Assembly: GCA_963797555.1 (NCBI GenBank)
Contig: CAWCPV010000003.1
Location: 672,001-736,000 of the forward strand
Source of the DNA: an uncultured Gammaproteobacteria bacterium
Lineage (GTDB): Bacteria > Pseudomonadota > Gammaproteobacteria > CAWCPV01
Length of the DNA stretch: 64,000 nucleotides
Reading direction: 5' to 3'
The notes beneath the pieces were generated by a model. The model did no database searches. It saw nothing but the letters and a program-made list of their open reading frames with translations, and was not told the DNA's origin. How positions within the stretch are numbered: the stretch's first letter is position 1; every line of letters begins with the position of its first letter. A program made the translations under genes and the position numbers. Positions 45,138 to 62,535 of the stretch are shown piece after piece.

Positions 45138-45734
45138 CTACGGGTGGCCGGCGTCTGCGGCCGCCTCGTCCGGGCCCGCTACCTCGAACACCTCCCACAA
45201 CGCCACCTCCACCGCCTCCAGAGTGGCGAAGATGAGCTTCTCTTCCGGGCCGAACACGGTACCCTTGTCGAAGCCGTCGGGGCCGAGCAGGAAGCGCATG
45301 GCGTAGTGCTCCAGGGGGTCCACCACCACGTATTCCCTGACACCGGTGCGCTCATAGAGGGTCCTTTTTTGGCGTAGGTCCTTGGTCGCGGTGGCAGGCG
45401 AGAGAATTTCCATCACCACGTCCGGCGCGCCTTCGACGTGGGTGGGCGTGATCTTCGCCGCGTCGCACACCACCAGAATGTCGGGCTGCACCACGTCCGT
45501 ATCCGAGAGGCGCACGTCCGTGGGCGCGATGAAGGCGCGGCAGGGTTTGCCAGCAAGGGCTTGCTCCAGTCGACTGGACAGGCGCAACACAACGGTCTGG
45601 TGCCGGGTGGACGGCGCCGGCGACATCGCGTACGCCGTGCCGTCGATGATCTCCCAGCGGTCCTCTTCGCTCCAGTTCCGGTAGTCGCTCCAAGTGTAGC
45701 GGGTGTCGGGGCGTTCCTTGCTCGATGTCGGCAT
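45138..45734 (-). CDS. Uma2-family endonuclease, close paralog of 31064-31657
   Basis: RYTWSDYR, VVQPDILVVCD, GVREYVVVDP, FDKGTVFGP shared with 31064-31657. Confidence 0.9.
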   Translation of the reverse strand: MPTSSKERPDTRYTWSDYRNWSEEDRWEIIDGTAYAMSPAPSTRHQTVVLRLSSRLEQALAGKPCRAFIAPTDVRLSDTDVVQPDILVVCDAAKITPTHVEGAPDVVMEILSPATATKDLRQKRTLYERTGVREYVVVDPLEHYAMRFLLGPDGFDKGTVFGPEEKLIFATLEAVEVALWEVFEVAGPDEAAADAGHP

Positions 45735-50805: not shown

Positions 50806-51715
50806 ATGGATCAAGAGCCCTCTATTCCGCAGGCGATCACGGCGAGCGGCCGGAGCTTTACCGAAGAGGAGATCTCCGCCATCGTCCGAATGGTGTCGAT
50901 GTGCGTGGGCCTGAGTCGTTTTGAGCTGGCGCAGACCATCTGTGAGCTGCTGGGGTGGAGACGGGACAACGGAGCCCTGAAGTCCCGCGAGGGTCGGGAT
51001 CTACTGGAGCGGTTGGAAGCTCGGGGGGATCTGGGGCTTCCCGCCAAGCGCACGGGCAGGCCCAAGGGGCGGCGCACCTGCACTGCGCAGACCGATCGGG
51101 GCGAACGCCGCGGCGAGATTGCCGGTGCGCTGCAGGAGGTGGCCCCGGTGGAGCTTCAGTTAGTGCGCCAGGCCGAGGGACGGGCATTGTGGCGCGAGCT
51201 TCTCGCGCGCTATCACTACTTGGGCTATGCCACACCCTTTGGGGCCCAGTTGGTCTATCTCATCTGCTCCCAGCGCCGGGAGGGGGAGGTGTTGGGCGGG
51301 CTCACCTACACCAGCCCGGCCTGGCGCATGCAGGCCCGCGATGCGTGGATTCGGCTGGGACGAGAGAGCGCGCAAAGCGCACCTCGCACGCATCGTCAAT
51401 CAGGGGCGCTTCCTGATTCTGCCCTGGGTGAAAGTGCCTCATCTGGCGAGCCACGTGCTGGCCTTGGGCAGCCGGCGCATCGTAGGGGATTGGGAGCGCC
51501 ACTATGGGCTGCGTCCCTGGCTGCTGGAGACCCTGGTGGACCCGGCCCGCTTTGCCGGGACCTGCTACCGGGCGGCCAACTGGTGCGAGGTGGGCGAGAC
51601 CAGCGGACGCGGGCGCATGGACCGTGCGCACCAACGCCATGGCAGAGCGATAAAGCGGGTCTTCCTCTACGCTCTGCACCCGCAGGCCAGAGAGCGCCTG
51701 CGCGGTGAGCGCTGA
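50806..51715 (+). CDS. DUF4338 / DruA-like protein, +1 frameshift near 51351
   Basis: Near-identical to 33461-34369; TGGATTCGG here versus TGGATCGG in copy 1. Confidence 0.85.
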
Positions 51716-51717
51716 AC

Positions 51718-53286
51718 TCAAGCGGGCGCAGGAAGCGGCGGTGCCTCAAAGCCGCGGCGTCGGTGGGCGAGGACATCTCTGAGATAGCACAGCGGGGAGC
51801 TCAATCGCAGCCGAGAAGTCTCGATCACACTGGCGAGCAGCGCCAGCGCCCGGCTGCCTTGTTCGCTGCGGGTCCCCTGGCTGATGCGACGCAGAATCAC
51901 CCAGTGACGCAGCGCCCGCTCCGCCACGTTGTTGGTCAGCGGCAGCTGAGGCTCATCCAACACCCGGAAGATCGCCCCCCAGTCGTTGAGCAGCTCCTTG
52001 CCCAGCGCCTGGGCCTTGTCATAAGGGCAGCAGCTCATGCGTTCACACAGGGCCGTGAGCTCGTTGAGCTCGCCCGGGTGGGCTTGCCGCAGGGAGCCGC
52101 CCGGTCCCTCGCGGGCGTGATAGACGGCCTGCATCAGCGCATCGAGCAGGTCATAGACCGCCTGGCCGTAGCCCTGGAGGGTGGGCGAGAGGCAATCCCT
52201 CAGGCCCCGGGCCTTGCGAATGAGATGCGCCCAGCAACGCAGGCGCTTGGCATAGTCCCGATAGACCTGGTACCCATCGCTCATCAGATAGCCGCAGAAG
52301 AGATCCTCGATGAGGTTCTGAAACATCTCTTTGGCGCGAGAGCCGACCAAGAACAGCGCCGTCGAGGCCGAGATGAACACCCATAACCACAAGGGCTCTC
52401 CCCATTGCTTGTGCGGTGTCTCATCGGCATGCATGAGGGCCGCTTCCAGCAACTGGGTCACCAGCTCATCCTCGACCGGCTCGCAGGCACGGGCGGTCTC
52501 CATCACGCATTGGTGGAGGGTGCCGATGCCGAGCGCCAGCCCAAACACCTCGTGCAGGAACTCCCGGACCAGGCGGATGGACAGGCGCATCCGAAACCGC
52601 AGCCAGACGATGAAGGCGCACAATCCCGGCCCCACCAGGCGCCACTCGCCAAGCTCCACCCCTCGCCAGCATCCCAAGTGCTCGGGCGCGCGGTGCGGCG
52701 CCTGCCGGGTCTCATGACCACAGTCGCAACGGCTCTGGTAGTATACCTGCCGCGTGCAGGTCAGGCGCAGCCCCGGCGCCTGCTCATCGCCAAAGACCAA
52801 GTCCAGCCTATCAAAGGCGGTGTAGGGCTTCGCCTGCTCAGGATTGAGCGCCCCACCACACAGCGCACAACTTCCCGGCCGATGATGGTCCCAATCGGTG
52901 ACTGTCAGCTTCTGGGCGCGCCCGAATCCCTGGGAGCCAGGCTGCCGGCCCGCTCGGCGCTGCGTCCCTGAGGTCTTGCCACTCGTGTCCTTTGCGCCCT
53001 TCTGGCCGCCAGCCCCGGGGAGGCCATCCTCCTCAGAACGGCTCTTGGCCTCCTCGTCCTCAGGACCGGCGTCGGCCTCTTCGTCCTCCCGCGCACGCAG
53101 CCAGGGGTCTTGACTGCTCGGCGGACGAGAGCTATTGGAGGGACTCTGATTGAGCCGCTCCCACGCTTCCTTGAGATCCTGCAGCAGGCGGATGCTCAGC
53201 GCTGCCAGCGCATCGGGATCCTTCTGCCTCAGCTCCAGAATGCGCTCCTCGCTGAGCTGACGAAGGTCGTGCTCCTTGAGCACCAT
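51718..53286 (-). CDS. IS66-family transposase, intact frame
   Basis: HADET, SDGY, TNNVAERALR. Confidence 0.92.
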   Translation of the reverse strand: MVLKEHDLRQLSEERILELRQKDPDALAALSIRLLQDLKEAWERLNQSPSNSSRPPSSQDPWLRAREDEEADAGPEDEEAKSRSEEDGLPGAGGQKGAKDTSGKTSGTQRRAGRQPGSQGFGRAQKLTVTDWDHHRPGSCALCGGALNPEQAKPYTAFDRLDLVFGDEQAPGLRLTCTRQVYYQSRCDCGHETRQAPHRAPEHLGCWRGVELGEWRLVGPGLCAFIVWLRFRMRLSIRLVREFLHEVFGLALGIGTLHQCVMETARACEPVEDELVTQLLEAALMHADETPHKQWGEPLWLWVFISASTALFLVGSRAKEMFQNLIEDLFCGYLMSDGYQVYRDYAKRLRCWAHLIRKARGLRDCLSPTLQGYGQAVYDLLDALMQAVYHAREGPGGSLRQAHPGELNELTALCERMSCCPYDKAQALGKELLNDWGAIFRVLDEPQLPLTNNVAERALRHWVILRRISQGTRSEQGSRALALLASVIETSRLRLSSPLCYLRDVLAHRRRGFEAPPLPAPA

Positions 53287-53694
53287 GATTGTGTGTGACA
53301 GTGAGGTCGAGGAACATCCTGCCAAGGGCACCCAACTGTCTCACGCTGGAACCGTTTTGTCCAGCCCTCCGGGTCAAAATATTCCAGGGGGGTGAACGGT
53401 TACACGGGAAAGTGTTTCTTGATCTCCAGCGGAGAGAACAATCCGTATCGCCGGGCGGCAGCGTCCAGACGCAATGCAAATGGTCCGACAGGGCCACCAA
53501 CGCCTCCAGGTGGAAGGGGTGCCGTACCCGAAAGCTATGAAACCCAGTTCGCAACACATCGGCCCGCTCGACCAATAGCCGATTCCCGTGTCGCGCGGCC
53601 AGATTCACCGTGAAAAACCACGCGGCTCGGGGAAGCCAGGCACGGCGGCACTCGGTCATCGATAACCTTCTCTCGTCCAGCTCTTTTCGCGAGC

Positions 53695-53724
53695 GATGCG
53701 GTTCCTTCGTTCACCGCATCCGAC
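53695..53724 (-). repeat. REP-like hairpin (copies also at 54366-54395 and 57609-57638; partial inverted copy at 50451-50466)
   Basis: GTCG/GTGG-GATGCGGTGAACGAAGGAACCGCATC on the minus strand; GATGCGGT/ACCGCATC stem next to the RAYT start. Confidence 0.75.
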
Positions 53725-53796
53725 GCGGGCTCGCCGCCTGCGCGGTGCGCCCCTTTCGCCCGGCTTGCCGTGCCGGGTGCTATACTCCAACGCGCG

Positions 53797-54342
53797 ATGT
53801 CCACGTTGAAGCGCAACGTCAGCCTCACCCCCGAGGAGTACATCGAGGCCGAGCAGTACGGCCCGATCCGGCACGAGCTCGTCGGCGGGCGGCTGTACGC
53901 CATGGTGGGGGCAAGCCGAGCGCACAACCTCATAGCGGGCAATCTGTACGCTGCCCTGCACACCCATCTGACGGGCAAGAACTGCCAGGTCTTCATATCG
54001 GACATGAAGGTGCGCGTGGGTGATGACTTCTATTATCCGGACATCGTCGTCGAATGCGATGCCTCCGATCCGGACCCGTACTATTGCCGCGAGCCGCGGC
54101 TCATCGTCGAGGTTCTGTCTGCCTCGACAGAGAAGTGGGACATGATCACCAAGCGCGTCGCCTACCAGTCCTTGTCCAGCCTCCAGGAGTATGTCGTGGT
54201 GGCACAGGATCGGCGAGAGATGCAGGTCTACCGTCGGGCCGGGGACACCTGGGACCTGGAGACCTACGCCCAAGGCGATGCCGTATGGGTGGCTTCGGTC
54301 GGACTGAGCCTGCCGATGGCGGCGGTCTATGAAGGCGCCTGA
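53797..54342 (+). CDS. Uma2-family endonuclease
   Basis: RHELVGG, YYPDIVV, IVEVLSASTEKWD, SLQEY. Confidence 0.9.
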   Translation: MSTLKRNVSLTPEEYIEAEQYGPIRHELVGGRLYAMVGASRAHNLIAGNLYAALHTHLTGKNCQVFISDMKVRVGDDFYYPDIVVECDASDPDPYYCREPRLIVEVLSASTEKWDMITKRVAYQSLSSLQEYVVVAQDRREMQVYRRAGDTWDLETYAQGDAVWVASVGLSLPMAAVYEGA

Positions 54343-54503
54343 AGCTCTTCGCAGGAAACGATCGCGAGCGGTTCCCTTCGTTCACCGCATCCCACACGGG
54401 CTTCGGCCTCCACCCGGCGACTGTCGGGGGATCGCCCGCAGGCGAATGGTAGAAGGGTGACCCCACGTGGTGATGCTAGACGCGATCGGTTCATGGGAGG
54501 GCC

Positions 54504-54582
54504 GCCCAACCACAAGATGGAGCTGACGAGGTCCACGCCGGTAAGGAACCGCGCGCCATCGCGGCTCATCTCGGCATTGAAC
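54504..54582 (+). other. attC site (degenerate R')
   Basis: GCCCAAC-CACAAGATGGAGCTGACG...CGCGGCTCATCTCGGC-ATTGAAC. Confidence 0.6.
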
Positions 54583-54631
54583 GGCAGAAACAACCGACGC
54601 CGAGATCGAACTAGTCAGCGAGAGAGCGATC

Positions 54632-55048
54632 ATGCTTTGCGCCGATAGCTACACAAAGGACTACGTGAGCGCTTGCCGAGCCAAGCTCGAGCAACAGGTT
54701 TCAGCGTACGAGCGCTTGATAAAGGCTGCGGGCAAGCCCGCCGAAGCGGCTGTCAAGGAATTTGAACCTCAGTTCTTCGGCAATATGATCCTGGCATTGG
54801 AGACCCGCTTCGTGCATAGGGCAAGAGGCAAAGAAGGAAAGGATGGCAATCCGCTGAATGAGGTGCGGATGATCAGTGCTTCAATGATTGCCAACGCCGA
54901 CACACTGCTTCCCGACAAGACCATCAAGTACGATCCGGCCAAGTCTATTCTGGGCTTGGAGATCGGCGACGAGATAAGGATAACGAAATCCGGGTACAGT
55001 GCCCTCTCCGAAGCGTTCCTGGCAGAAATCGAGGCAAAGTACCCGTAG
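54632..55048 (+). CDS. Hypothetical cassette protein
   Basis: 138-aa ORF starting shortly after an attC. Confidence 0.75.
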   Translation: MLCADSYTKDYVSACRAKLEQQVSAYERLIKAAGKPAEAAVKEFEPQFFGNMILALETRFVHRARGKEGKDGNPLNEVRMISASMIANADTLLPDKTIKYDPAKSILGLEIGDEIRITKSGYSALSEAFLAEIEAKYP

Positions 55049-55108
55049 CGGCATGAAAGCCACGACCTACCGTTAGTACATTCCCGCGGAAAGACCCGAG
55101 GAGGCCCC

Positions 55109-55483
55109 ATGCTGCAAAACGCCCCAATGTATTCATATATACCGGCGAAGGACCTCGCCCGCGCGCGTAGATTCTACGAGGAGAAGCTGGGCTTCAGGCC
55201 GAAGCGGGACACGGCGGGCGGCGTAGTCTACGAGTTCGGGAAGGGCACCGCGTGCTTTCTGTATCCGACGCCGAACGCCGGCACCTCCCAAGCGAGCCAG
55301 GCGTTCTGGCAAGTCGAGGACATCGAACGCGAGGTCGCGGAGCTGAAGGCGCGCGGCGTGAACTTCGAGATGTACGACACGCCCGAGATGAACGAGAACG
55401 GCATCTCGACCGCTGGCGATGCCAAAGCTGCGTGGTTCAAGGACACGGAAGGAAACATCATGGCGCTGATCCAGAGCGTCTGA
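55109..55483 (+). CDS. VOC / glyoxalase family protein
   Basis: DLARARRFYEEKLG, VAELKARGV, AAWFKDTEGN; GAGGAGG RBS. Confidence 0.9.
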   Translation: MLQNAPMYSYIPAKDLARARRFYEEKLGFRPKRDTAGGVVYEFGKGTACFLYPTPNAGTSQASQAFWQVEDIEREVAELKARGVNFEMYDTPEMNENGISTAGDAKAAWFKDTEGNIMALIQSV

Positions 55484-55575
55484 GTTCCGATTCCGGCATG
55501 TTCGCCGTTAGTCCTCGGTTAGATCACGCCCGAAGGAAATGTAGACTTCCCTGGGAACTCGTGAAAATTGATGCC

Positions 55576-55656
55576 GCATAACAACGCGATCGACTATGAC
55601 GCCTTACCAGTGCTAGATATTGTGCTGGTGGGCGCATGTCATCGCGAACTTTGGAC
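55576..55656 (+). other. attC site (degenerate R')
   Basis: GCATAAC-AACGCGAT...ATGACGCC...GGCGCATGTCATCGCGAAC-TTTGGAC. Confidence 0.6.
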
Positions 55657-55694
55657 CGCACAAGCAATTCCAGGGCGCGCGCGAGGATAGTTTC

Positions 55695-56180
55695 ATGGAT
55701 ATTCAGGCGCTATTTGGACTCAGCATCCTCATGTGTTTTGTAGCTTTTGGCTTGGTCACGAAGCTCTACATCTGGCCCCGTCTGCGGATGCTGGAGCGGG
55801 ACGATGCGCTCGCTCCATTGGTCTTGCCCCACACGTTTCGATTCATCGGCCTCAGCTTCCTGGTGCCGGGGGTTGTCTCTCCCTCGCTCCCGTCGGCCTT
55901 CGCCGCTCCAGCCGCATACGGCGATCTGGTTGCAGCCGTGCTCGCAGTCGCCGCTACTGTTGCGCTTTCCAGGCGTGCGCCAGTGGCCACCTTGCTCGTG
56001 TGGCTGTTCAACGTGTGGGGTGCGGCCGACCTCCTATTTGCGTTTTACCGAGGGTTGTTCGAGGTTCAGCTTGACCCGAGGATGCTCGGCGCCGCGTTCT
56101 TCATTCCAACAGCGATAGTGCCGCCCCTTCTGGTCACGCATGGCCTGATATTCTGGCTACTTGTCCGACCCAGGCATTAA
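55695..56180 (+). CDS. Hypothetical membrane protein (cassette)
   Basis: Several TM segments; HTFRFIG, AYGDL, FNVWG.ADL, VPPLLVTH. Confidence 0.8.
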   Translation: MDIQALFGLSILMCFVAFGLVTKLYIWPRLRMLERDDALAPLVLPHTFRFIGLSFLVPGVVSPSLPSAFAAPAAYGDLVAAVLAVAATVALSRRAPVATLLVWLFNVWGAADLLFAFYRGLFEVQLDPRMLGAAFFIPTAIVPPLLVTHGLIFWLLVRPRH

Positions 56181-56233
56181 AGCGCGGCATCGAACGTGGC
56201 GCCATTCAAACACTCGCCGATGACGAAGGTGCC

Positions 56234-56324
56234 GCCTAATCTTGCGCTCAACCGGACGGGCCGACATGCAGCTTCAACTTGGCGAGCATCGGCGCGGCGC
56301 GCCGGTTAGCTTGATGCGTTGGGC
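56234..56324 (+). other. attC site
   Basis: GCCTAAT-CTTGCGCTCAACCGGACG...CGCCGGTTAGCTTGATGC-GTTGGGC. Confidence 0.85.
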
Positions 56325-56357
56325 GAATCTATTGTGATCCGTAGATTAACTTTCAGC

Positions 56358-57422
56358 ATGCCCGTCTGGAGCCTTGTTGTACCGGTCGCAGTCTGCGCCA
56401 CGCTTGCCGCAGTTTGGGGTCGTCCGCTGGGCTGGATCCTTGTTTCCTTGGTCGCTGCCGCGCTAGCCGCAGCCGTAATCGTCGCCGTTCACCACGCCGA
56501 AGTCGTTGCGCTTCGTGTCGGCGAGCCCTTCGGCACACTGGTTCTCGCCTTGGCGGTCACCGTCATTGAGCTGTCGCTGATCGTCTCATTGATGACTTCC
56601 GGCGGGGCGGCGGCCAGCGAGCTGGCCCGGGATACGGTGTTTGCAACCGTGATGATCATCTGCAACGGCGTAGTGGGTCTGTGCCTATTGCTGGGGGCTT
56701 TGCGGCATCGCGTGCTCGCCTTCCGGGTCGACGCCGTCAACCCGGCGCTGTCGGTACTTGCCACCCTCGCGACCTTGACGCTGGTGCTGCCCACGTACAC
56801 GTCCTCCACGCCCGGACCAACGTTCTCCCCCGTGCAACTTGTTTTTGCCGGTGTGGTCTCGCTGACGCTCTACGCGGCTTTCGTCTTCGTGCAGACTGTG
56901 CGGCATCGGGATTACTTTCTGCCGGTCGGGGTGGCGTTCGAGGATGCGCACGCGACCCCGCCTCCGGTTTCCGTGGCGCTGATGAGTTTTACCCTTCTGT
57001 TTTTCTCGCTTTTGGCCGTCGTTGGTCTGGCCAAGACGCTTGCGCCAAGCATCGAAGGCGCTGTTAAGGCGGCATCGGCGCCGCAGGCTGTCGTTGGCAT
57101 CGTCATCGCGCTGCTGGTTCTGCTGCCCGAAACCTGGGCCGCCGTGCGGGCGGCCCTCCGCAATCGCATGCAGACCAGCTTCAACCTGGCGCTGGGCTCC
57201 GCGCTCGCCACCATCGGCCTGACCATACCGGCAGTGGCCATCACTTCCATTGTTCTGCGGTTGCCGCTGGATCTCGGCCTGCCCCCCAAGGAGATCACGC
57301 TGCTGGCGCTGACCTTGCTGATTTCGGCAATAACCCTTGCCAGGGGGCAATCCACGGTGCTTCAGGGAGCCGTGCACCTGATTTTGTTCGCCGTCTTTCT
57401 ATTCCTTGCGATCGTGCCGTGA
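56358..57422 (+). CDS. Calcium:proton antiporter (ChaA-like)
   Basis: VHHAEVVALRVGEPFGTLVLALAVTVIE, LLPE, LGSALATIGLTIP, LQGAVHL. Confidence 0.9.
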   Translation: MPVWSLVVPVAVCATLAAVWGRPLGWILVSLVAAALAAAVIVAVHHAEVVALRVGEPFGTLVLALAVTVIELSLIVSLMTSGGAAASELARDTVFATVMIICNGVVGLCLLLGALRHRVLAFRVDAVNPALSVLATLATLTLVLPTYTSSTPGPTFSPVQLVFAGVVSLTLYAAFVFVQTVRHRDYFLPVGVAFEDAHATPPPVSVALMSFTLLFFSLLAVVGLAKTLAPSIEGAVKAASAPQAVVGIVIALLVLLPETWAAVRAALRNRMQTSFNLALGSALATIGLTIPAVAITSIVLRLPLDLGLPPKEITLLALTLLISAITLARGQSTVLQGAVHLILFAVFLFLAIVP

Positions 57423-57482
57423 CGTATGGCGGGCAGCGAGCAGCACAAGTCAACTCTTGCGGGCATCGGCGAGAGTCGCCCA

Positions 57483-57551
57483 ATCGGGTAAGGGGGCTGC
57501 TAACCCTCCCTCCCCGTACCACCCGGCATGCGGGTCCGCACCGGGCGGTTC
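57483..57551 (-). ncRNA. Group II (IIC-like) intron 3' end remnant, domains V-VI
   Basis: GAACCGCCCGGTGCGGACCCGCATGCCGGGTGGTACGGGGAGGGAGGG...CCCCCTTACCCGAT. Confidence 0.8.
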
Positions 57552-57654
57552 AGGCATGGCGGTGTTCGGTCATCGATCACCTTCTCTCGTCCAGCTCTTT
57601 TCGCGAGCGATGTGGTTCCTTTGTTCACCGCATCCGACGCGGGCTCGGCGCCTG
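57551..57654. repeat. 104-bp imperfect copy of 53637-53740 (RAYT start codons plus REP)
   Basis: Colinear alignment at constant offset 3914. Confidence 0.85.
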
Positions 57655-59753
57655 ATGAGGCTCAGCCAGCTTGCAAGCAAACGGAACCTTGAGCTAGCGT
57701 GGAGGCGGATTACCACTGGCGGCAACTACCAGTACAAGCGGCTGTACCGCAGCATCTACTACGCCTATGAGGTCGCCCTCGACGCCAACTTGCGGGACCT
57801 CCGTCAACGGCTGCTGGGTGGCGCCTTTGAGGCCCGTCACCCGGAGCGAATCTACGTTCCGAAGGCTTCGGGCCTCCATCGCCCGTTAGCGCTGCTGAGC
57901 ATCGAGGACCAGGTCGTTCTGCAGGCATTTGCAAATCTCGCCGCGAATCGAATGCAGCGCCGCCGCGCCCAGCTTCAGTTCAAGGTCGTCTTCAGCAACA
58001 TCTTGGAGAAGCCCGACAGCATCTTCTTCTTCCGCCGCTGGCAGAACACTTACAGGGCCTTCCAAGGGCGTATCCGAAAGCACTACCAAGCGGGCATGCG
58101 ATGGGTCGGCGATTTCGACCTGGCAGCCTTCTACGACACGATCTCCCACGAACTCCTGGTGCGGACGATCTACCCGCGTATAACCAACGCTGACCTCGAT
58201 TGGATCGGGCAGTGTTTGCGGACCTGGAGCTCCGACCGAGCAGTTTCGGGGCACGGCCACGGCCTGCCGCAAGGACCCTTGGCGTCCGATTTTCTCGCCG
58301 AGTGCTTCTTGCTCCCCATCGACCTCGCGCTCCAGAAGCGGCGAGGGTACACGCGGTACGTCGACGACGTGCGGCTCTTCGGCGCCACCGAGAATGAGGT
58401 TCGAGCGGACCTGATCGAGATCGAACGCCACTGCCGCGAGCGAGGCCTCATCCCGCAGACGGGTAAGTTCGCCATCAAGCGCGCCCAAAGTGTCCAAGAG
58501 GCAATGGGGATGCTCCCCAGCATTTCGGACCCGCAGCACGGGGCGGGCGGCACCGAGACGATTGACAGGAAGCAGGCTCGGCGGGCGTTTCGCTCGGCGA
58601 TTGGCGGGAAGCCATACCAAGTCACAGACAAAACGCGGCTCCGGTACGTCCTCTATCGAGCAGAGCCCGACAGCGACCTTCTCAAGCTGGTGCTACGCCT
58701 CATTCCACACCACCCGGAGCATGCCGACGCGTTCTTCGCGTACCTTGGCCGCTTCGACTACAGGAAGCCGATCGAGCGGCTCTGCCTCAGCCTGGTGCAG
58801 CAGAATCCATACCCATACGTTCGAGGCGAGGCATGGCACGTTCTGGCCAAGTATCTCCGGGAGGCACGGTCCATGACGGCCGGCGATCCGACACCGCTCA
58901 CGACGAGGGCCATCAACATTGCGAAGCAGAGGACCCAGGAGAACTTCGTCGAGCGGTGGAGCGCCTGTCACTTCCTCTGCGTGTCGGAGGGCCTCACGTC
59001 AGCTCGACACAGCAGGTTTCTGAAGTACCAGGCACCGCTACTCCAGTCGCTGTTGGCCCCGGTGCTTCCTGGTACCGCGTTCGCAAAGGGAGAAGTGGTT
59101 GAGACCTACCTTGGGCGAACGACGCCGGAGCCAGGGTTGTCGGTGTGTTCAGCGATGCACGAGCGTGGCTTGACGCCCTCGACCTTCGGGCTGACCATGG
59201 ACCAGCTGCCATCGCAGTCGCCAACACGCTGCGGGAGCTGGGCGTCGTCTCAGCGCCCGGGCCCAAGGTCGATCCGATCGCCGAGATTCTCCACAGCCGA
59301 TACGCGGTGCCCCGCGGCAAGTCATGGCATCAGTTGCTTGGCGCCGAGTACGTGCACGCGCTGGGTCTTCTGAAGCAGGCCGAAGCCGCATTCGCGGGGG
59401 GCCTCTCTTTCTGGCTTGCCTGCCAGAACTCGTTCAACCAGACCGTATTCCTGGCCCTGTAGCGGCACCTCGCGGCGACGGGCCACGCGGCGGCTTGCAC
59501 GATCATCGACAAGAAGGGGCAGCTTGTAGACTTCGGGGTCACGCTGGACACGAACGGACCGTTCTCGAAGAACTGTCCGACCATCGGCAACTCCTTTCGG
59601 GACATGAACACGCGCCGCAACCAACTTCCGGTGTCGCACCCCTACGACAAGAAGACGGCGGCGCAGTCACGGCACCTCAAGGCCCAGGAGAGAAACCAGT
59701 TCGTGGCCAAGCTACGAACCGCCTATCTCAACTTGGTGGTGCTCATGCCGTGA
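57655..59753 (+). CDS. Reverse transcriptase of UG/Abi (defence-associated) type with helical region and C-terminal HEPN-like motif; frameshift near 59217 and TAG at 59460
   Basis: PKASGLHRPL, DLAAFYDTI, GLPQGPLAS, RYVDD (58357-58368); RNQLPVSH (59616-59639); about 699 codons when repaired. Confidence 0.85.
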
Positions 59754-59816
59754 GGGCGCATGGAATCCGACCGGTAGTGGTGATCGAGAAGCCGCATCCG
59801 CTAGAGTGGGAATGCT

Positions 59817-59876
59817 GCCCAACAACAGCATGGAGCGGACGGCGCTGCGCGCCGCCGCTGATGCGGAGCGTTCGCG
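59817..59876 (+). other. attC site (short, 60 bp)
   Basis: GCCCAAC-AACAGCATGGAGCGGACGGCGCTGCGCGCCGCCGCTGATGCGGAGC-GTTCGCG. Confidence 0.85.
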
Positions 59877-59900
59877 CGAGGGAGAGAATAGGAGATCACA

Positions 59901-61010
59901 ATGAAGGACATCGTGAAATGCATCGAGAATCTCCGGGTACAACTGGACCGTCACCGCAAGCAGGGGCTCAAAGAGTATCCGACTCGGACGATCTTCATTG
60001 ATCCCCTTCTCGCCGCCCTTGGCTGGGATGTTCGTGATCCTGACGAGGTAGAACTTGAGCATCCCACAGTGGATGGAAAGTCGGTGGACTACGCGATGAA
60101 GGTCAACCGAAGGGTTGTTCTCCACCTGGAGGCAAAGCAACTTGGGGATCCCCTTGACGACGTCAAGTCCATCACACAGGTTGTGGGCTACGCCGCCAAT
60201 GATGGAATTGAATGGTGTGTGCTGACGAACGGAGTCAAATACAAGGTGTATAAGGCATCGGAGAAGGCCAGCGCGCCGGACAAGCTCCTCTTCGAAGTAA
60301 GCATAGACCCAAACGACTCACGCGGGCTGACGCCTGAAGAATTGGCGCGGCAATTCAGCCGCCTGTCTCGAGAGTCCATGGCGAAGGGGCTGCTGGACCA
60401 ACTCGGAACCGAGATTTTCACGACAGGAAAAATACGGAAGGTGCTTGATCGCCTATTCGCCGAGACGCCAGCATCCTTCATCCGTCTGATTCGAAAGACT
60501 ATGAGCGATTCATCGGTGACACCATCCCAAATCGAACAGGCGCTGCACCGCATCTGGGACAGTGGCAAGGAACCAATTCCCTCGTCAGTAAGCCAATCGA
60601 AGGTTCAGCGACCGGAACGGACAGACTCCGGCCGTCGAACCACCGAATACCTGGAGAGCCACCACACAGACGGCAAACCAAACGAAGTCGTCGAACTCTA
60701 TCGAGGATTGGACAGATACTGCCAAGACCTTGCACCAGGGCGAGTCACCCGCGTCTACAAGGCCAAGTACATAACTTGGTCCCTGGATAAGGCGATCTTC
60801 TGTTGTGCTCATCTCCAACAAAGCGGACTCCGGGTATGGCTGAAGATTGATCCGAAGACGCTCGGGCCATCCCAATCTTTCGCCCGGGATGTCTCGAAGA
60901 TCGGACACTGGGGTGTTGGCGACGTTGAGCTTGCGATCAACAGCCTTGAGCGCTTGCGGGATTCGGAAGCGTACGTTCGCAAGTCGTTCGAGAACGTGAC
61001 CCAGGAGTAA
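59901..61010 (+). CDS. HsdR N-terminal-like PD-(D/E)XK nuclease with DUF5655-like C-terminal domain
   Basis: FIDPLLAALGW, VDYA, LEAK, YAAN, VLTNG; RDVSKIGHWGVGDVE. Confidence 0.8.
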   Translation: MKDIVKCIENLRVQLDRHRKQGLKEYPTRTIFIDPLLAALGWDVRDPDEVELEHPTVDGKSVDYAMKVNRRVVLHLEAKQLGDPLDDVKSITQVVGYAANDGIEWCVLTNGVKYKVYKASEKASAPDKLLFEVSIDPNDSRGLTPEELARQFSRLSRESMAKGLLDQLGTEIFTTGKIRKVLDRLFAETPASFIRLIRKTMSDSSVTPSQIEQALHRIWDSGKEPIPSSVSQSKVQRPERTDSGRRTTEYLESHHTDGKPNEVVELYRGLDRYCQDLAPGRVTRVYKAKYITWSLDKAIFCCAHLQQSGLRVWLKIDPKTLGPSQSFARDVSKIGHWGVGDVELAINSLERLRDSEAYVRKSFENVTQE

Positions 61011-61021
61011 TACTACAAGAT

Positions 61022-61092
61022 GGCGAACAAGGACCTCGCACCTTACCGGTGACCCGCCTCGGGTCACCGGAAGGTGAAGGCTGTCGTTAGGG
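61022..61092 (+). other. attC site
   Basis: GGCGAAC...CACCTTACCGGTGACCCG-CCT-CGGGTCACCGGAAGGTG...GTTAGGG. Confidence 0.8.
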
Positions 61093-61669
61093 CTTCGTGC
61101 ATGACGATTCCCATCTTCAGCGAGATTGAGCGTCTTATCACATCACAGAGAACGGGTCCGCTGTCGTTCTCAAGGAGCATCTTGGGCTTCTCAATACCAA
61201 GCTTGGCCTGCTCAAGCCCGTCAACCGCCTCCCAGTCACCGGACAAGCGCCTGACATTCAAGGCGAGCACCGGCGAGGCGAGATGCACCACCCCGAGGTC
61301 GGGCAGCGCCCGCGGTTCCGGGGACAGTATACGGGTTCCGCGGACAGTCTACGTGACTCGTCAGACAGGGAGCCGGCCTTGCACTCGTTTGCGGACGCCT
61401 GAAGGCGAAGCATCGATGTCTGGAATTGGCCGGAAGCCCACCGTTGCATACGGCGTCGCCGATCGCGATCCCGAGATAGCGGACGCTGTGAACTCAATAT
61501 GGGCCTCACAAGGAGGCGAGACGGGCTCAAACCCTCAGTCGGCCCCACTTTTTGCTTGATGCGCCAGTCACTTTTCAGCTGTCTCCGTCTTCTTCGGGGA
61601 GCCCGTCGGTAACGGCCCGGCCCGCGGCTCAGCAAGCGCTGCGACTTCTCATTCGAAGGATTCAGGCCA

Positions 61670-61936
61670 TCACCGGGCGGTGTGGTAGACGCGGAGAATT
61701 TGCAGCGCGTCTCCAACAATCCGGTAAGGGGCGATGTAGCGGGTTCCCGAAACCACCAGTTCGCGGGTGCCGGGCACGCGCCCGGGCCGCCCGATCTGGG
61801 GCGTGGCGGCCAACAGAAGGACGCACTCCCGGATGCGCTCGTGTAGCACCCTGGCGGCAGCGGGATTGTCCCGCACGATGTGAAAATAGATGCCCCGCAG
61901 GTCGCGGCGGGCTTGCGGTGACCAGAGGAGCTTCAA
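61670..61936 (-). CDS. RelE/ParE-family toxin
   Basis: WSPQARRDL, PQIGRPGRVPGTREL, ILRVYHTAR; overlaps the antitoxin stop. Confidence 0.9.
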   Translation of the reverse strand: MKLLWSPQARRDLRGIYFHIVRDNPAAARVLHERIRECVLLLAATPQIGRPGRVPGTRELVVSGTRYIAPYRIVGDALQILRVYHTAR

Positions 61937-62187
61937 GGTTTGGCATCGCGCCCGGACAGCAATGCCTCCATCTCGGCCATGACCTGCTCATGCGGGATCC
62001 CCTCGCCTTTGTCGAGGGAGACCATGGCTTCCTTGATGCCTTCAGTCTGCCAGGCCTGCGCTTCCACATACTGCCGGATCGCGTCTTCGATAACCCAGTT
62101 GCGAGACCGATCCATGGCGGCAGCGAGGGCTTCCACCTTGGCGACGAGCTCGGGGTCTGTGCGGATGGTTATGCTGGTGCCTGCCAT
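61933..62187 (-). CDS. CopG/ribbon-helix-helix antitoxin
   Basis: ITIRTD, LAAAMDRSRNWVIEDAIRQY, GIPHEQV. Confidence 0.88.
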   Translation of the reverse strand: MAGTSITIRTDPELVAKVEALAAAMDRSRNWVIEDAIRQYVEAQAWQTEGIKEAMVSLDKGEGIPHEQVMAEMEALLSGRDAKP

Positions 62188-62535
62188 GACGTAACCTCTA
62201 TGATTGCTTTGCACTCAACAGCATTCATAGCACAGGGGCCGGATCGTGGACAAGGGGTCCCTTTTGGGACCCTGGCCAGCTCACCGCCACGTTACCGACC
62301 CGCTGGCCCGCCGTGCTCGGCACTGTGCATAGCGCAGGCGGTTACCGAACAGCGAATGCAGGCCCGGGGTGTGATGCGCCCTCATGCGCGCATCGCAACG
62401 CCCCTGCAGCCCAAGCGGGCGTCACCGTCCATCCGGGGGATAGTTGACGGCTCCAGACTCAAGCCTTGGCCTGGGCGCGCACCTGTGTTACAAACTAGCG
62501 TGCTGCTCAGCCCTCCCAGGTTTGCGTCCCGCGCC

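Follow-up and report, generated by a model that had tools for sequence, protein, structure and literature searches.

Positions 57655-59753 of the DNA stretch analyzed here (64,000 nucleotides (nt) of contig CAWCPV010000003.1, from an uncultured Gammaproteobacteria bacterium, referred to as the window throughout) contain a reverse transcriptase (RT) gene. With a probability of about three in four, it represents a UG19-large gene, inactivated recently, which codes for an RT-like polymerase, an alpha-helical repeat and a HEPN-like domain in the layout known from AbiA, and is carried by an integron-type cassette, among a few clustered attC sites without a nearby integrase. Direct observations on which this rests are the family membership, two lesions in the coding sequence, the attC site which follows it, the HEPN-like fold of the modelled tail and the conserved motif located there. 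An initial annotation, based on the letters alone, had described the gene as an RT-RNase defence module, mobilised as a cassette and possibly belonging to an unclassified lineage.

A UG19-large gene interrupted by two lesions

The list of open reading frames (ORFs) shows a single long ORF (57406-59373), with an in-frame ATG at 57655, followed by two shorter frames. When an intact homologue, P0003, was compared with the window by tblastn, a coding span of 699 residues was recognized at 57655-59753 on the + strand, interrupted by two lesions. Frame one (57655-59217; 85% identity to P0003) encodes residues 1-521, where fingers and palm (residues ~1-300) are followed by the alpha-helical repeat domain (~305-520). 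The tblastn frames +1 and +3 share base 59217, a G which ends codon 521 and also starts codon 522: one base, present in all intact homologues, is therefore missing at this point. Frame two (59217-59459) encodes residues 522-602, corresponding to the first half of the HEPN-like domain; identity to P0003 is 87% over residues 522-699. It is closed by an in-frame TAG (59460-59462), replacing Gln603, which is invariant in 40 homologues. The remainder (59463-59753) encodes residues 604-699, with the second half of the HEPN-like domain, and the stop codon (59751-53). Coordinates, length and both lesions are as initially annotated, including a C-terminus hidden from the ORF list by the frameshift and the TAG; the inferred length also matches that of the best relatives found in protein databases, 107 of which, out of 119 other than the window's own, measure 695-705 amino acids (aa).

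The translation of 57655-59373 includes the RT motifs HRPLALL, AAFYDTISH, LPQGPLAS and RYVDDVRLF (YVDD at 58357-58368), and the ATG-started product is matched by Pfam RVT_1 (E 3.7e-14), in agreement with the RT palm proposed earlier. The type of RT was evaluated by PADLOC: the best profile for the RT part is RT_UG19 (468.7 bits, E 8.8e-141), the runner-up being UG21, with 172.9 bits. For the intact P0003, UG19 scores 513.5 bits vs 174.3, and residues 2-696 align to positions 2-559 of the 562-position profile. The models for group II intron RTs (TIGR04416, 85.9 bits, cut-off 300) and for retron RTs (NF038233, 21.3 bits, cut-off 235) both remain under their cut-offs, and Rfam features no match at E <= 0.1 within 53000-62500, where no msr/msd RNA was found. 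The assignment to the UG/Abi class, rather than to group II introns or retrons, is thereby supported.

In the description of this group given by Mestre et al. 2022 (NAR, PMC9226505), UG19 belongs to Class 1 of the UG/Abi groups, and its members are reported with an "unknown domain"; the C-terminal domain, for which a very distant HEPN homology is indicated, is fused in UG19-large, while it is encoded by a separate gene in UG19-small. Judged from its sequence, the locus is a UG19-large member, of an architecture already catalogued. Since UG19-large had been described with this same architecture, the suggestion of an unclassified lineage, and with it the claim of novelty, has to be abandoned.

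The central part of the protein had been expected to be helical. In the AlphaFold2 model of the intact P0003 (mean pLDDT 76.6), residues from 305 to ~530, following the RT, are nearly all helix and form an alpha-helical repeat domain, with block pLDDT values mostly between 80 and 96.

In spite of its two lesions, the window copy is otherwise well preserved: it departs from the homologues at 3 of 186 invariant columns only (the TAG, L256I and G436S), within the range of the intact homologues themselves, which depart at 1.5 columns on average and at 6 at most. The damage must accordingly be recent. Because the HEPN-like half is severed from the RT, and is itself cut ahead of its motif, the system is most likely dead in the window.

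The same good preservation may be taken to mean that the gene is intact in the cell, and that the lesions are errors of sequencing or assembly. The remainder of the gene looks fully constrained, a change from GG to G is typical of long-read assemblies, and the nearest contigs of two metagenome runs, X1 and X2, have a C at 59460, with an extra G at 59216 in X1. Four such runs were compared with the window, as assembled contigs of near-relative alleles, and not as raw reads; large parts of the RT gene have no cover in any single run, and the window's own allele was not seen across either lesion in the contigs of the four runs, so that the frameshift, in particular, could be an assembly error: this counts against recent inactivation. 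Yet the X1 and X2 contigs represent other alleles (10 differences in 890 nt and 2 differences in 151 nt, respectively), and the X1 contig bears a one-base loss of its own at 59195, where the frame breaks at about residue 514. The C-to-T substitution, which creates the TAG, is atypical of assembly errors, and nonsense substitutions are found in other copies too, with TGA codons in two homologous loci (L009 and L012). A gene intact in the cell is accordingly regarded as quite unlikely, and true inactivation is retained as the likelier explanation of both lesions.

Two ways of reading through the lesions were also considered and dropped: programmed frameshifting, as the break sites vary among alleles and no slippery heptamer is seen at 59200-59225, and recoding of the TAG, as the neighbouring ORF 54632-55048 terminates at a TAG.

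Fold and motif of the HEPN-like tail

The motif in the tail, RRNQLPVSH, is encoded at 59613-59639, where R655 corresponds to 59616-18 and H662 to 59637-39. The last 198 residues of a homologous locus, L013, were searched against 1.84 billion cluster representatives, and 205 relatives were found at E <= 0.001. Among the 150 listed, 135 representatives cover the motif, which takes the general form RRNxLPxSHPY, and 130 of them keep both R655 and H662; both residues are also retained in all 40 close homologues. In an alignment of 33 tail sequences, 24-59% identical to the first row, R154, R155, P159 and H162 of the motif are near-invariant.

The model of the tail domain (pLDDT 92.2, pTM 0.84) was compared by VIA-align with 48,161 chains. 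The top matches are 2hsb (Z 9.2, rmsd 3.2, 117 residues aligned) and 2jpu (9.1); other HEPN structures follow, such as 5yep_B (8.8), AbiA (8oz7_A, 8.8) and the HEPN domain of sacsin (3o10, 8.2), with Roquin, RnlA, Csm6 and LsoA at lower scores. In a second look, the top 16 entries included HEPN, HEPN-MNT, RnlA and MtlR ones, and across both lists the HEPN structures score between 7 and 9.2. The tail is thus predicted to fold like HEPN domains, AbiA's included, although membership falls short of proven. The HEPN-like tail of the initial annotation is supported by the VIA-align scores of 8-9, and its Rx6H motif is conserved across representatives.

Several results weigh against a full assignment to HEPN. 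For helical bundles, VIA-align scores of Z below ~13 may indicate a common arrangement of helices, and the tail, at Z ~9, lies below this value. No match at E <= 0.001 was obtained for the tail model by Foldseek. Searches with Pfam detected no HEPN family in the pieces from the window, in three intact homologues or in 33 members of the family, and hmmsearch of the tail-family profile vs the PDB sequences returned chance-level rows only, with no HEPN protein. Pfam, PADLOC and NCBIfam reported nothing for the two tail pieces alone. The match of R655 and H662 to the Rx4-6H of HEPN is one of motif and spacing.

The tail was also modelled as a homodimer: the model scores 0.73, vs 0.22 for the best control, contacts agree for at least 94%, and pLDDT is at least 83. 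The mark applied is one passed by 20 of 30 solved pairs and by 1 of 23 single chains. Residues 159-167, forming the motif loop, lie in the modelled interface. As solved HEPN dimers exist, the pass of the dimer model may reflect nothing but likeness to them.

The lengths of the tail relatives bear on a different interpretation of the frameshift. Of the same 150 listed relatives, 51 are of 600 aa or more and 66 are shorter than 300 aa; many of the short ones, of 160-270 aa, align from their own N-terminus. Fused and free forms of the tail thus both exist, as they do in the account of UG19 in PMC9226505, and the window copy might be a working split system, where the frameshift yields an RT-helical protein and a separate tail protein, as for UG19-small and its partner gene. 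The position of the breaks may be seen as an indication for this: in database proteins, tails go out of frame after residues ~476 (P0104), 481 (P0053), 491 (P0061) and 517 (P0002), with another at ~600, while the break falls at ~514 in the X1 contig and at 521 in the window, all but the one at ~600 being near the domain junction. The search which produced these proteins covered only products of 286-910 aa, to which earlier breaks are invisible, and in genome loci the breaks do not cluster before the tail, being located at residues 366, ~400 and 557. In the window, moreover, the TAG at residue 603 takes away the half of the tail which bears the motif, and the first start codon in the tail frame (GTG at 59145) would add 24 unrelated residues before the homologous part. 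A working split system is, on these grounds, very unlikely, and the copy is better described as inactivated. Independent breaks just ahead of the tail domain (window 59195-59217; P0002, P0053, P0061, P0104) are an observation in their own right: they may reflect either a recurrent fission of the fused gene or a bias of the protein search.

The cassette and its surroundings

The attC of the RT cassette is found at 59817-59876 (+), with R'' GCCCAAC (59817-23) and R' GTTCGCG (59870-76). Its R'' box starts 63 nt after the stop codon of the RT gene: the attC reported earlier is therefore present, with a correction to the distance, given then as 64. The site features paired inner repeats with bulged bases, two stem mutations and an R' whose last four letters are off consensus. 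Because of the two mutations it folds weakly (z -1.1), in comparison with the bulged hairpin of a canonical member of its family (z -4.1).

That this 60-nt sequence belongs to a widespread family of attC sites is indicated by the metagenomes. In the four runs, depth rises to 58-696 over 59756-59900, vs 0-6 over most of the RT gene; many contigs match only 59817-59872, with unrelated sequence on both sides, and several of them go on with GTT, then AGGC. A pattern derived from the window and from two homologous loci (L013 and L014) matched at least 120 metagenome stretches, 80 of which were analyzed as loci (L022-L101). In all 80, an element of about 60 nt, almost identical across many metagenomes, lies between unrelated flanks. 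A canonical GTTRRRY end is present in 40, at exactly 60 nt in 34 of these; many of the other 40 end off consensus, for example with GTTCGGC, as the window's site does, so that in about half of the copies the last four letters of R' deviate from GTTRRRY. An IntI-like gene is present in 6 of the 80 loci.

The next cassette contains a nuclease-like ORF (59901-61010, +), with an N-terminal match to Pfam HSDR_N (E 5.8e-9) and a match to the PADLOC candidate family PDC-S18 (E 2.3e-21) over the C-terminal third. It is followed by an attC of its own (61022-61092, +; R'' GGCGAAC, R' GTTAGGG), predicted to form a hairpin whose z, -5.75, was equalled by none of 200 shuffles. The TTCGC at the 5' end of the nuclease-like cassette (59871-75) is complementary to the R'' of this attC, which accounts for the unusual R' of the RT attC. 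On the minus strand, a ParE toxin gene (61670-61936; Pfam ParE_toxin, E 9.9e-18) and an RHH antitoxin gene (61933-62214; RHH_1, E 2.3e-11) occupy 61670-62214. Nuclease cassette and toxin-antitoxin pair had both been noticed in the initial annotation.

On the 5' side, an attC-like site is located at 56246-56324 (+; R'' GCTCAAC, R' GTTGGGC), and is the sole match in the window of a strict scan, requiring RYYYAAC...GTTRRRY and a hairpin. Its R' is exactly complementary to GCCCAAC, the R'' box of the RT attC; the RT cassette may, for this reason, begin at 56319, and include the gene for a Ca2+/cation antiporter, CaCA/ChaA-like (56319-57422, +; Pfam Na_Ca_ex, E 2.7e-29; NCBIfam caca2, E 1.2e-67). 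The site is weaker than the other two, and folds no better than shuffled sequences (z 0.01). The same scan overlooked the attC at 59817, whose R' is off consensus, and reported two doubtful sites in nine full-length homologue loci. The junctions 54343-54631, 55049-55108 and 55484-55695 look attC-like by eye, and were not counted, given their poor R' boxes and weak fold z (-0.46, -2.13).

Other results tell against cassette carriage. The RT gene is present in none of the 80 loci of the attC family. Conversely, where the RT is present at full length, in 10 places, an attC-like site follows it in 3 only, namely in the window and in L013 and L014, whose sites resemble the window's in their 5' halves. 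No IntI is found in the window; the genome has a single complete intI, located on a different contig (C7:47556-48500), and a degraded one, with an internal TAG, is on the window's contig (C3:989296-989835), about 253 kb from the window. Of the proposed mobilised module, the attC cassette stands, while the copy it carries is broken and is not accompanied by an integrase in the window. The lack of an integrase at the head of the array fits the cluster of attC sites without integrase, as proposed above. Canonical GCCTAAC...GTTAGGC attC sites are present beside the complete intI (C7:43755-48500).

Two repeats take up the 232 nt ahead of the RT start codon. The first, a dispersed repeat of ~75 nt named 'Y' (57478-57552, +), has, by blastn, a further 11 copies, spread over 9 other contigs of the genome, and no match in Rfam; three of these further copies share an additional conserved 3' extension. 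The second (57551-57654, +) is a REP element, joined to the opening codons of a minus-strand gene for a REP-associated tyrosine transposase, and abuts the RT start codon. Blastn reports 17 matches of the REP element in the genome, the copy before the RT included, and a fuller copy of the transposase is present at 53300-53662(-) (NF047646 REP_Tyr_transpos, E 6.8e-20). The REP and transposase piece has supplanted the former 5' leader of the cassette, whatever it was; the possibility that the repeat itself serves as leader or non-coding RNA was rejected, given its identity.

Similar elements are scattered in the preceding region. A truncated REP-associated tyrosine transposase gene (53132-53659, -) abuts an IS66-family transposase gene (51718-53328), and REP-related matches occur at 53637-53740, 54362-54407 and 57540-57654. 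Beside the IS66 transposase gene, an ORF (50806-51705, +) matches the DruA (Druantia) domain (Pfam PF14236, E 1.1e-18). Two genes for putative endonucleases of the Uma2 family are found in the same accessory region, at 45138-45731(-) (E 3.9e-32) and, flanked by REP elements, at 53797-54339(+) (E 2.8e-31).

Distribution, proposed function and known systems

Protein databases yielded 726 relatives of the RT; the best 120, among which is the window's own ORF, are 71-100% identical to the query. Among 170 candidate stretches of genomes, 13 loci were confirmed, from Rhodothermales, Binatia, Korobacteraceae, Nitrospirales, Nitrospiraceae, Hydrogenedentota, delta-proteobacteria, Rhodanobacteraceae, Ignavibacteria and others; close RT homologues are held by at least eight named lineages. 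When the window copy is compared with five intact loci, and these loci with each other, dN is 0.13-0.26, while dS goes from 1.3 to saturation. Such low dN values, with dS near saturation, point to a likeness which is old, kept by strong purifying selection, and not due to recent spread.

Of eleven close loci, six are intact. Two contain a nonsense TGA, at residue 366 (L009) or 557 (L012), one several frameshifts (L014), and two are remnants (L016, L021). Genomic contexts vary. In two Binatia loci (L010:4949-5971 and L015:5318-6001) an intact RT gene directly follows a gene for a BrxL-like Lon protease, which places it at the end of a BREX-type locus. Other loci feature housekeeping-type neighbours, such as aldehyde dehydrogenase, CobA and PEPCK. 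In L009 (Rhodothermales, L009:5800-8330), an inverted repeat of ~115 bp borders the homologue on either side and points to a vehicle other than the integron.

In PMC9226505, a defensive role of UG19 is predicted on the basis of the loci inspected. The assays described there concern UG12, UG10, UG7 and UG28, while UG2 and UG15 served as controls; UG19 does not appear among them, and a full-text search of the literature ('UG19' and 'reverse transcriptase') returned no experiment on any UG19 member, and no later work on UG19 beyond classification: both facts diminish the case for defence. A conserved cellular function, or that of a selfish retroelement, has therefore to be weighed. It would agree with the literature being devoid of experiments on UG19, with the housekeeping-type genes among the neighbours checked in several loci, and with an unusually low dN/dS and a protein identity of 71-89% from Gammaproteobacteria to Ignavibacteria and Nitrospirales, which are atypical of fast-evolving defence genes. 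It agrees less well with the two loci, out of nine full-length ones, placed directly after a BrxL-like BREX gene, with the lack of any Rfam RNA around the window copy, and with a patchy distribution, cassette carriage and frequent inactivation, all of which fit a costly accessory gene. A role outside defence is, on balance, unlikely.

A more specific proposal is that this tightly conserved subfamily is an AbiA-like single-gene system, that its HEPN-like domain is a real and costly effector, and that hosts repeatedly silence the gene, at or near the junction between helical and HEPN-like domains or by nonsense mutations; fusion and fission would then be means of cost control, and travel between phyla would take place as cassettes and by other vehicles. 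This is speculative, and we consider it improbable as a whole.

By analogy with AbiA, AbiK, Abi-P2 and DRT4, the intact relatives of the window copy would form a single-gene anti-phage system. Their polymerase would make single-stranded DNA, protein-primed and untemplated; for AbiA, AbiK and Abi-P2, long random DNA, made with neither template nor primer, is described by Gapinska et al. 2024 (PMC11077055). The helical domain would enclose the DNA product. The HEPN-like tail would dimerise (the HEPN domain of AbiA is described there as required both for polymerase activity and for the dimer), and might possibly act as an RNase on infection. As to this last step, the RT-RNase defence module of the initial annotation is upheld in its two components, the RT and the HEPN-like tail, and weakened in the activity ascribed to the latter. 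The AbiA HEPN domain exhibits no RNase activity on four substrates, and its R581A and H588A mutants leave defence unchanged against the phages tested (PMC11077055), a result unfavourable to an RT-RNase; the term may thus be used, for this family, as a hypothesis and not as a reading of the data.

For UG19, a UG/Abi group predicted to be defensive, a sharper description is now available, with an AbiA-type HEPN-like tail and a near-universal RRNxLPxSHPY at a predicted dimer interface. The well-conserved subfamily of 699 residues, with its intact natural copies, would suit phage assays and structural work; the window copy, being broken, adds nothing functional. It does provide a clear example of an RT gene of 2.1 kb carried by an integron cassette, with an attC from a family widespread in environmental metagenomes.

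Comparison with known systems starts from integron anti-phage cassettes (Darracq et al. 2025; Kieffer et al. 2025), 783 systems of which are counted in those studies, according to the summary in the review PMC13434031. As in those cassettes, a single defence-type gene is followed by an attC, among other cassettes and a toxin-antitoxin pair; in contrast, the window gene is large (2.1 kb), where SCI anti-phage proteins tend to be small (same review), and the copy is dead and lacks a nearby integrase.

With UG19-large, as outlined in PMC9226505, the window family shares the best profile, by ~300 bits, a helical repeat domain, a fused tail of distant HEPN likeness and the existence of split forms. 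It differs in that the window copy is broken and cassette-borne, and in that the subfamily described here is very tightly conserved; the word 'integron' occurs 0 times in the main text of that paper. What is added to the catalogued UG19-large consists of the HEPN-like fold, the conservation of the motif, the dimer model, and the spread over lineages under selection, with many inactivated copies.

When the full-length model was compared with solved structures by Foldseek, the best matches included UG15 (9l9s, E 2.8e-5), DRT4 (9vdv/9vdo), Abi-P2 (7r08), DRT6 (9wy8) and AbiK (7r06). TM-scores are low (0.25-0.33 on the query), and group II intron and G2L4 RTs score alike; the matches to UG15, DRT4, AbiK and Abi-P2 span 430-690 columns. 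These solved Class 1 RTs (DRT4/UG15, DRT6/UG12, AbiK and Abi-P2) have the plan of RT and helical domain in common with the window family, while they lack an appended HEPN-like domain of its kind. DRT4 is reported to couple the synthesis of single-stranded DNA to an effector RNase.

AbiA of Lactococcus lactis (PDB 8oz7; PMC11077055) is absent from the best 25 of the 65 PADLOC families to which the RT part has a match, and 8oz7 is absent from the 19 PDB sequences which the family profile retrieves at E <= 1; by these comparisons it belongs to an RT group other than UG19. Its domains are nevertheless arranged in the same order as in the window protein, RT-like, helical and HEPN; the tail model of the window family aligns with 8oz7_A (Z 8.8), and the tail is predicted to form a dimer, as AbiA does. 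The AbiA motif, RNSNPVSH, has six residues between R and H, a spacing equal to that of the RNQLPVSH of the window, with N at position 2 and PVSH in both.

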